Assembly (NCBI RefSeq): GCF_030384885.1
Contig: NZ_CP128613.1
Origin: Escherichia coli
Lineage (GTDB): Bacteria; Pseudomonadota; Gammaproteobacteria; Enterobacterales; Enterobacteriaceae
Length of the DNA stretch: 64,000 bases
Reading direction: 5' to 3' (one strand)
Shown here: piece after piece, positions 30,543 through 31,117 of the stretch
Layout: each line of letters opens with the position of its first letter
Numbering within the stretch: position 1 is the first letter of the stretch
Position numbers and translations under genes: made by a program
The notes under the pieces: model-generated
Database searches by the model: none
Told to the model about the DNA's origin: nothing
Seen by the model: the letters and a program-made list of their open reading frames with translations, nothing else

Positions 30543-30571
30543 TATAAAAGGGGAGCGGTTACCCGCTCCCC
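30543..30571 (-). terminator. rho-independent terminator of the tisAB transcript
   Basis: inverted repeat ggggagcgg/ccgctcccc; minus-strand reading gives the stem followed by a U-run. Confidence 0.5.
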
Positions 30572-30593
30572 TTTGGTGCGACTTGAATCTGAA

Positions 30594-30683
30594 TTACTTC
30601 AGGTATTTCAGAACAGCATCAAGCAGTTGCAGTGCTGCAACAATGAGTTTGAGGATAAGAATGGCGATATCCACCAGGCTCAT
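30594..30683 (-). CDS. tisB: type I toxin TisB (29 aa, SOS-induced membrane peptide)
   Basis: minus-strand translation MSLVDIAILILKLIVAALQLLDAVLKYLK; not in the ORF track because shorter than 60 aa. Confidence 0.9.
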   Translation of the reverse strand: MSLVDIAILILKLIVAALQLLDAVLKYLK

Positions 30684-30916
30684 ACGCGTCTCCTGTGGTT
30701 CAGGAGCACTGCCAGCTGACGTACCTTTCCGCTGCCTGTTGCCAGCTGTTATGCACGCGGCATCTCAAGGAGAAACGTTGTGCTGTTGACATAACACAGT
30801 GTGCTCACGCGGGGTTAAGGCGCTGACGGCACCACCCGTTTCAGCCAGGACTTAGTGCGCCGGGTAACGATGCGGCCCCCGCATAACACATTGCGTACAG
30901 TGATATTATAGAAGAG

Positions 30917-30937
30917 CACTGTATAAATAAACAGTAA
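30917..30937. promoter_or_regulatory. LexA box (SOS operator) between divergent tisAB and istR
   Basis: cactgtataaataaacagtaa matches CTGT-N8-ACAG. Confidence 0.75.
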
Positions 30938-31042
30938 TTTTTAGACAAAACGCAAACTGTGATCGATACTCAACTATGCACTAAATACGTCAAAATTCGT
31001 GCCGAAATTGCGCGTTCTGCGCGGAACACGTATACTTTCAGT

Positions 31043-31117
31043 GTTGACATAATACAGTGTGCTTTGCGGTTACCAGCCGCGGGCGGCTGACGAAACCTCG
31101 CTCCGGCGGGGTTTTTT
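31043..31117 (+). ncRNA. istR: IstR-1 antitoxin sRNA
   Basis: -10-like tatact at 31031-31036; 75 nt ending in terminator cctcgctccggcggggtttttt; its first 21 nt match 30785-30805 at 20 of 21 positions, giving antisense pairing to the tisAB leader. Confidence 0.7.

Follow-up and report, generated by a model that had tools for sequence, protein, structure and literature searches.

The tisB/istR-1 type I toxin-antitoxin locus of an Escherichia coli chromosome, with a rare frameshift in the tisA frame

Layout of the locus

The region from 30300 to 31400 of the window, by which we mean the whole 64-kb stretch of Escherichia coli DNA that was analyzed, harbors a compact set of small divergent elements. 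From left to right one meets the minus-strand 5' end of emrD, then ysdE, which is a small ORF, a palindrome of REP type and a terminator read on the minus strand; these are followed by a 29-codon ORF with a leader of about 215 nt, a minus-strand TATAAT, a CTGT-N8-ACAG box, two promoter-like elements on the plus strand, and a plus-strand RNA made of a hairpin plus a terminator that ends at 31117, after which comes ivbL (Table 1). The gene order emrD / tisB / istR / ivbL-ilvB is that of K-12, and the genes on both sides, emrD and ivbL-ilvBN, are present in the window.

E. coli strain 2013C-4282 carries this stretch at 100% identity, and RefSeq annotates emrD, ysdE, tisB, ivbL and ilvB there; the locus is about 98% identical in nucleotides to that of K-12 MG1655 over 600 nt. 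The K-12 MG1655 locus (b4618, b4616) has the same genes in the same order, on the same strands and beside the same neighbors (emrD, ysdE, ivbL-ilvB), together with identical -10 hexamers, ribosome-binding site (RBS), terminator architecture and leader from +1 to +91. The differences found here are the N2S form of TisB, a tisA frame of 30 codons, a LexA box that begins CACTG, two spacer bases, a -35 element reading TAGACA, and two A>G changes in IstR.

Table 1. Features of the tisB/istR-1 locus and its flanks, in window coordinates
Feature	Position	Strand	Basis
emrD	29130-30320	-	Left flank of the locus
tisAB mRNA intrinsic terminator	30547-30574	-	Terminator scan; 12-bp G+C-rich stem, 4-nt loop, T run
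tisB CDS, 29 aa plus stop, N2S form	30594-30683	-	ORF list; Pfam/NCBIfam; RefSeq WP_000060506.1
tisB Shine-Dalgarno sequence AGGAGA	30689-30694	-	mRNA +205 to +210; read from sequence
"tisA" frame, 30 codons (K-12: 37)	30700-30792	-	ORF list; best read as untranslated leader
IstR-1 target / ribosome standby region, +94 to +114	30785-30805	-	Repeat, pairing, co-fold, covariation, +1 mapping; mechanism from PMC6690012
5' stem-loop/pseudoknot element of +42 mRNA (+50 to +77)	30822-30849	-	Published positions; identical to K-12
5' 41-42 nt of primary tisAB transcript; processed active form starts at +42 = 30857	30857-30898	-	Published nucleotide identities
tisAB -10 hexamer TATAAT	30905-30910	-	Read from sequence; 7 nt upstream of +1
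LexA (SOS) box CACTGTATAAATAAACAGTA	30917-30936		Consensus match; overlaps tisAB promoter spacer
IstR-2 promoter: -35 TAGACA, 17-nt spacer, -10 GATACT	30942-30970	+	Promoter scan; K-12 comparison; PMC11264685 Table 1
IstR-2, 140-nt LexA-dependent long form	30978-31117	+	K-12 RefSeq coordinates via alignment; Rfam RF01400
IstR-1 promoter: -35 TTGCGC, 17-nt spacer, -10 TATACT	31008-31036	+	Read from sequence
IstR-1 antitoxin sRNA, 75 nt	31043-31117	+	Rfam alignment; fold; K-12 annotation
ivbL (ilvB leader peptide gene)	31248-31346	+	Right flank of the locus

The tisB gene and the tisAB promoter

A preliminary description of this DNA, made from the sequence, had placed a 29-codon tisB on the minus strand at 30594-30683, and both the coordinates and the length are correct. 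The encoded peptide, MSLVDIAILILKLIVAALQLLDAVLKYLK (29 aa), exceeds the cut-offs of Pfam PF13939 (TisB_toxin; 37.6 bits, cut-off 25) and of two NCBIfam equivalogs, NF011340 (69.9 bits, cut-off 53) and TIGR04459 (61.5 bits, cut-off 38). The N2S variant is the majority form, carried by 85% of E. coli, and is toxic (PMC11264685). That the ORF track misses tisB had been singled out for comment; the omission is a matter of length and annotation thresholds rather than a biological finding, and RefSeq annotates tisB here. The Shine-Dalgarno sequence of tisB, which in K-12 is sequestered in structure, is predicted to be mostly paired here as well (unpaired probability 0.22). The tisB RBS is reported to be 100% conserved (PMC11264685), and the inverted repeat of the tisAB terminator has arms that are 100% complementary.

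At the tisAB promoter lies a putative LexA (SOS) box, which agrees with TACTG(TA)5CAGTA at 17 of 20 positions. It is the sole match to this consensus in the 64-kb window when up to three mismatches are allowed (0 expected, none in 100 shuffles) and also the sole CTGT-N8-ACAG in the window. The box was originally given as 30917-30937; it is indeed present and unique in the window, but the canonical 20-mer ends one base earlier, at 30936. The K-12 box begins with TACTG and this one with CACTG, a T>C change at position 1, where about 10 other species also have C. On one side the box is separated by 5 nt from the -35 element of IstR-2, and on the other it adjoins the tisAB -10 hexamer, which is TATAAT in 99.8% of E. 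coli (PMC11264685 Table 1). This adjacency is retained in 39 of 39 species loci, with a CTG-N10-CAG box kept at the same place in all of them.

The IstR RNAs

The Rfam istR model (RF01400) matches the plus strand at 30988-31117 over model positions 1-130 of 130, scoring 147.7 bits against a gathering score of 45. Two RNAs with a common 3' end, IstR-2 and IstR-1, can be assigned to this region. The -35 element of IstR-2 reads TAGACA here and TGGACA in K-12, whereas the promoter elements of IstR-1 are identical to those in PMC11264685 Table 1; in K-12 this promoter is reported to be constitutive. IstR-1 opens with a single-stranded antisense segment at its 5' end, followed by one internal hairpin and by the hairpin of the terminator (31091-31117); folded alone, it has a predicted energy of -31.2 kcal/mol with the 5' 12 nt unpaired. 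Relative to K-12, A>G changes at 31081 and 31086 convert U-A into U-G pairs within the IstR hairpin.

The 5' end of IstR-1 calls for some care. The candidate start put forward at first was 31043, giving an RNA of 75 nt, and the K-12 start in RefSeq is equivalent to window position 31045, giving 73 nt; the covariation described below favors pairing from 31043.

Mapping of the tisAB leader

Nucleotide identities published for the K-12 mRNA (CC50/51, G54, C55, G57 and C74; Romilly et al., PMC7708055) fit the minus strand only if +1 is 30898, a position that is also 7 nt downstream of TATAAT. It follows that +42 is at 30857, that the RNase III product +106 begins at 30793, and that the Shine-Dalgarno sequence and the tisB AUG are at +205 and +216. 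Between 30808 and 30914 every base agrees with K-12, so that +1 to +91 are identical and the putative processing region and pseudoknot are unchanged. The minimum free energy (MFE) structure predicted for the +1 transcript pairs nucleotides of about 3-25 with nucleotides 85-105, so that the 5' end is engaged with a portion of the standby region, in line with the reported inactivity of the primary transcript (PMC6690012). The published difference in target accessibility between +1 and +42 was not reproduced computationally, with mean unpaired probabilities of 0.35 and 0.36, respectively.

The repeat and the antisense duplex

A second copy of the 21-mer GTTGACATAATACAGTGTGCT (31043-31063), differing from it at one position, lies at 30785-30805, so that the recurrence of the istR-1 5' end within the tisAB leader is found at exactly the coordinates originally given for it. 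A search with up to three mismatches returns these two sites alone from the window and nothing from 100 shuffles, with 0 expected by chance. At the level of DNA the repeat covers 22 nt (30784-30805 and 31042-31063). The two RNAs are read from opposite strands, IstR-1 from the plus and tisAB from the minus, so a direct repeat in DNA becomes antisense complementarity in RNA, and the DNA "duplication" is the trace of trans-antisense pairing between two divergently transcribed RNAs. The complementarity extends over about 21 nt and is situated about 100 nt upstream of the tisB RBS, with the target at +94 to +114 and the Shine-Dalgarno sequence at +205.

The single difference, T at 31053 against C at 30795, produces a U:G wobble in the RNA duplex. 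The leader had been called a perfect-type target, which holds in the sense that all 21 positions pair but is too strong as wording, the duplex being made of 20 Watson-Crick pairs and one G:U wobble. Both the IstR-1 antisense segment and its target are identical in K-12 MG1655, the single difference included; the mismatch is thus not specific to this strain, and the wobble belongs to the published "21 nt of complementarity" (PMC4147584). The wobble G at 30795 (+104) is two nucleotides away from the +106 start at 30793.

Prediction of a stable duplex between sRNA and mRNA, proposed in the preliminary description as a check, gave a positive result. The 21-bp duplex has a computed energy of -33.5 kcal/mol with 21/21 positions paired, and co-folding of IstR-1 with the processed +42 mRNA yields a net gain of -27.6 kcal/mol, against -8.9 +/- 2.6 kcal/mol (minimum -18.1) when the 5' 24 nt of the sRNA are shuffled (n=100). 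In the co-fold MFE structure, nucleotides 1-42 of IstR-1 pair within +48 to +114 of the mRNA, the 21-nt target included. Co-folding with shuffling of the 5' segment replaced a measure that did not discriminate, namely the duplex energy of full-length IstR-1 with the whole mRNA, at -78 kcal/mol compared with -57 +/- 4.4 kcal/mol (minimum -76.4) for shuffled sRNAs. A few further short direct repeats between the leader and the 3' part of IstR are not colinear and, being short, were treated as chance.

Conservation across the Enterobacteriaceae

Compensatory mutations have been reported to restore regulation in the K-12 system. The comparative set was anchored on EmrD and comprised 80 species-representative Enterobacteriaceae loci. 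Of these, 54 encode TisB upstream of emrD and 44 have a detectable IstR. Pairing was assessed on the 37 loci (31 distinct rows) that have both the IstR-1 5' segment and the leader target, aligned as sRNA-linker-mRNA and drawn from Escherichia, Citrobacter, Kosakonia, Enterobacter, Leclercia, Atlantibacter, Klebsiella indica and others.

The columns of the duplex (window 31043-31064) are almost always paired across the 37 loci, with 86% of cells paired compared with 23-46% once the partner strand is slid by 1-3 columns, and pairing collapses two positions beyond either edge of the duplex of about 22 bp. Three pairs show compensatory changes (GC15/AU13, AU26/GC5 and UA30/CG1). At four pairs (columns 13, 15, 22 and 24) the changes are one-sided, and in every case a C in the sRNA has become U while its partner in the mRNA is G, which is compatible with wobble pairing; non-pairing cells occur only at columns 7, 9 and 23. 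The central wobble is itself an Escherichia-specific C>U change in IstR-1, which has arisen independently in Klebsiella indica, and most genera have a G-C pair at this position.

The covariation across species offers independent support for the predicted duplex between IstR-1 and its target. It could in principle come partly from gene conversion rather than from selection for pairing, since the sRNA and its target are direct repeats in the DNA. As clean comparative support for the IstR-1/standby duplex and for its boundaries, the result is of modest value.

Strain variants and their possible effect

On the sequence evidence the segment is almost certainly the tisB/istR-1 type I toxin-antitoxin locus of the E. 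coli chromosome, present in full and very probably functional. The preliminary description had called it a complete locus with a LexA box, and all of the defining features that can be read at the sequence level are in place, in the K-12 arrangement; it had also called the system a known one, with which the family models and the synteny agree. The system has already been described in detail, as the textbook SOS-linked type I system and a model for ribosome standby and for TisB-dependent persisters. An intact copy in one more E. coli genome is to be expected, since about 80% of complete E. coli genomes carry the locus. Apart from a few rare strain-level variants this is an intact and ordinary locus, and the finding matters little beyond correct annotation.

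The variants nevertheless raise the question of whether the locus, recognizable as it is, has been functionally altered or is starting to decay in this lineage, such that a 1-nt deletion in the leader, a weakened end of the LexA box and private leader substitutions would change the inducibility or the translation of the toxin. We regard this as improbable. The deletion is rare, as a 42-mer spanning it is found in 11 of 5,426 complete E. coli genomes, and the source strain has four substitutions of its own (30751, 30761, 30915 and 30917), being also the only one with the exact 71-mers around the leader and around the LexA/promoter region. The two leader substitutions, at 30751 and 30761, slightly shift the predicted local fold, and the fold predicted for the +42 mRNA is about 6 kcal/mol more stable than that of K-12, with a changed partner for nucleotide +138. 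Two promoter-spacer bases beside the LexA box also differ from K-12. The locus is, moreover, dispensable in nature, being absent from about 20% of complete E. coli genomes and from E. albertii, and replaced by a 470-bp deletion scar in Escherichia sp. MOD1-EC7003.

Against such a change stand the tisB ORF, the Shine-Dalgarno sequence, the terminator, the -10 hexamers and the LexA core CTGT-N8-ACAG, all of which are intact, as are the pseudoknot region, the 21-nt duplex and the whole of the IstR structure. Among species that keep the system the spacing between the target and the tisB AUG ranges from 74 to 137 nt, so the loss of 1 nt is unlikely to matter, and C at position 1 of the LexA box is common in other species. 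The deletion is also present in independent assemblies and in E. coli E69, and so has persisted. No strain variant removes a defining element, and the reading of a complete and very probably functional locus is retained.

The origin of some of these variants was also considered. Quasi-palindrome template switching was ruled out as the source of the changes at 30751 and 30761, as there is one change in each arm and a single switch cannot produce this. Beside the LexA box, the window-specific GAGCAC forms a 13-nt, 85% inverted repeat with the 5' segment of IstR-1. Neither a templated mutation nor a role in RNA was accepted for it, given that it is upstream of both transcription starts and that other Escherichia have GCGC and TTGC variants, and the site is treated as a hypervariable spot.

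The tisA frame

The deletion falls between 30783 and 30784, one base away from the target and just 3' of it in the mRNA, where K-12 has CAACAAGC and this strain CAACAGC. By shifting the frame it leaves tisA with 30 instead of 37 codons. The finding of an exact 71-mer in the source strain only had aroused the suspicion of a sequencing error, but a long-read assembly error private to one genome is ruled out, for the deletion occurs in 11 genomes and in three comparison loci (L003, L004 and L009). Its sharing by independent assemblies and E. coli E69 marks it as a real, if rare, lineage marker, and its rarity matches the report of a 37-codon tisA frame in 99.6% of E. coli (PMC11264685).

If tisA were a real coding gene whose translation is coupled to that of tisB, in the manner of mok and hok, the frameshift would disable a leader-peptide mechanism. 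We find this very unlikely, even though a 37-codon tisA, its stop overlapping the start of tisB, is retained in more than 99% of E. coli, a conservation left unexplained in PMC11264685, and even though the tisA AUG lies inside the IstR-1 target. Across the species loci the frame is not maintained. The codon at the position of the tisA AUG is ACG in 24 of 39 loci, the equivalent ORF runs from 19 to 66 codons and takes all three frames relative to tisB, and most genera have a leader shorter by about 34 nt. A search of the 37-aa and 30-aa products against Pfam and NCBIfam gave no family match for either. The frameshifted lineage, of at least 11 genomes, has an intact tisB, and the literature offers no evidence of tisA translation and favors the standby mechanism (PMC11264685, PMC6690012).

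These comparisons support the published view that tisA is not translated; its apparent conservation in E. coli would then reflect constraint on the leader RNA together with low divergence. The frameshift lineage and the lack of tisA conservation across genera both bear on the question, raised in PMC11264685, of why tisA looks conserved in E. coli. A lineage in which the frame is broken and all else is intact might even amount to a natural experiment pointing to constraint at the level of RNA and not of peptide, a suggestion that we make with considerable reserve. It is less likely that the deletion retunes standby efficiency or control by IstR-1.

The repeat as a possible DNA element

That the 21-mer repeat is instead a DNA-level element, either a pair of protein sites or a product of chance, is hardly credible: the copies are direct repeats on one strand, a geometry also expected of repeated protein-binding sites, and a third partial copy, CATAACACATTG, occurs at 30882-30893, but no such match is expected by chance, the one-sided changes at columns 13, 15, 22 and 24 break DNA identity while keeping RNA pairing, one copy coincides with the 5' end of an sRNA bounded by a terminator and the other lies within the 5' UTR of the divergent mRNA, and the pairing in K-12 has direct biochemical evidence (PMC6690012, PMC4147584).

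Proposed mechanism

In K-12, the SOS induction of tisAB, the constitutive expression of IstR-1, the cleavage of the duplex by RNase III and the toxicity of TisB have all been established (PMC6690012, PMC4147584, PMC2826370). From sequence identity we infer that the same mechanism, including its biochemical steps, operates at the locus described here (steps after PMC6690012, PMC7708055 and PMC4147584). LexA bound to 30917-30936 would repress the tisAB promoter (-10 at 30905-30910, +1 at 30898). DNA damage would then allow synthesis of the primary transcript, which would not be translated, the standby region and the tisB RBS being hidden by its 5' end and by structure farther downstream. Loss of the first 41 nt would give the +42 mRNA, in which a 5' stem-loop/pseudoknot and the single-stranded stretch from +94 to +114 would recruit the 30S subunit through ribosomal protein S1 ("standby"), after which 30S subunits would slide to the structured tisB RBS some 100 nt downstream. 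The 29-aa TisB would enter the inner membrane, collapse the proton-motive force and so favor persister formation.

The antitoxin would act upon the standby step. Constitutively made IstR-1, encoded on the opposite strand at 31043-31117, would pair by its 5' 21-22 nt with the standby region; this would block the loading of 30S subunits and lead to cleavage by RNase III, leaving an inactive +106 RNA.

Comparison with related type I systems

Among the closest known systems is dinQ/agrB of E. coli, which, according to PMC3567139, is likewise an SOS-induced type I system with a LexA-regulated small membrane toxin, a divergent antisense sRNA that acts in trans and has a repeat in common with the toxin leader, and an mRNA of which only the 5'-processed form (+44) is translated. 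Its toxin and sRNA sequences are unrelated, however, and it occupies another chromosomal site; dinQ/agrB is ruled out as the identity of the present locus, where the family models identify TisB and istR.

The hok/sok system of plasmid R1 is also of type I, and shares a long structured leader, activation by mRNA processing, antisense pairing far from the toxin RBS, and cleavage of the duplex by RNase III (PMC4147584). It differs in that the antisense RNA is encoded in cis and acts by blocking the translation of mok, a genuine leader ORF with which hok is coupled. In tisB/istR-1 the upstream frame tisA is not a conserved translated ORF of this kind, its start being absent in 24 of the 39 species loci and its frame shifted in the window, and the mechanism is one of competition for the standby site.

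Finally, zorO/orzO and shoB/ohsC are further chromosomal type I systems of E. coli in which the genes diverge, the long 5' UTR is processed and the antisense RNA pairs far upstream of the RBS; a standby-like region has been proposed for zorO (PMC11264685). Neither is under LexA control, and their sequences differ from those described here. Strains also vary in the pairing regions of these two systems, whereas the duplex of tisB and IstR-1 is nearly invariant.

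The tisAB leader

The tisAB leader of the window differs from that of K-12 by a 1-nt deletion at 30783/30784 (about +115 of the mRNA), which lies directly 3' of the IstR-1 target and breaks the 37-codon tisA frame. This frame-breaking deletion is rare: only 11 out of 5,426 complete E. coli genomes carry it, as does E. coli E69. The leader also harbors, further upstream, a third partial copy of the core of the repeat shared by IstR-1 and its target (CATAACACATTG, 11 of 12 positions matching). The copy, at 30882-30893, falls among the 17 nt at the 5' end of the primary tisAB transcript, and the segment that carries it is removed on processing to the active +42 mRNA.

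Across genera, the leader varies in length. The distance from the IstR-1 target, or standby site, to the tisB AUG is 74-78 nt in most non-Escherichia genera (loci L013-L085) as opposed to 109-113 nt, making this part of the leader around 34 nt shorter, and in Klebsiella indica it reaches 137 nt. Standby therefore operates, or has to operate, across distances that differ between loci.

The LexA box and a possible second operator

A hypervariable patch borders the LexA box on its left, which is outside both transcripts and takes a different form in each of the genomes compared in the table. The version found in the window generates a 13-nt, 85% inverted repeat between 30912-30924 and the 5' segment of IstR-1 (31052-31064). 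Several loci of Citrobacter, Leclercia, Enterobacter and Klebsiella indica carry another CTG-N10-CAG motif (for example CACTGCGAACATTCACAGTA) a short way downstream of the tisAB -10 hexamer, which may represent a second LexA operator. Escherichia lacks this second motif.

Loss of the locus

The leader and promoter sequence is missing from around 20% of complete E. coli genomes, and the tisB/istR-1 locus is absent from this site in the representatives of E. albertii and Salmonella enterica diarizonae. In Escherichia sp. MOD1-EC7003 a clean deletion of roughly 470 bp, at 1689/1690 of its locus and equivalent to 30636-31105 of the window, has left nothing of tisB but its last 13 codons and its terminator, and nothing of IstR but the end of its terminator.

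Annotation and neighboring features

Both IstR-1 and IstR-2 are annotated in the K-12 RefSeq record. In the PGAP annotation of the source genome (NZ_CP027579.1), tisB is listed in this stretch and an ncRNA feature for istR is missing. The REP-type palindrome bears a weak, sub-threshold likeness to naRNA4 (26.9 bits against a gathering score of 59.5). The hairpin that follows ivbL is presumably the ilvBN attenuator; its weak Rfam match to P6 was judged spurious.

Features in and around the tisB/istR-1 region, in the window and in related loci
Feature	Position	Strand	Remarks
ysdE small ORF, 24 aa	30396-30470	+	RefSeq-annotated; between emrD and tisB
REP-type palindrome	30480-30535		after ysdE
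Hypervariable patch	30914-30917		K-12 GTTT; window GAGC; closest relative GTGT; E69 GCGC; Escherichia sp. E1V33 TTGC
Second CTG-N10-CAG motif	~28 nt from main LexA box, transcribed side		loci L027, L030, L066, L075, L085, L054, L068
ivbL leader peptide, MTTSMLNAKLLPTAPSAAVVVVRVVVVVGNAP	31248-31346	+	Val/Leu-rich attenuator
G+C-rich hairpin with T run	31371-31428		after ivbL
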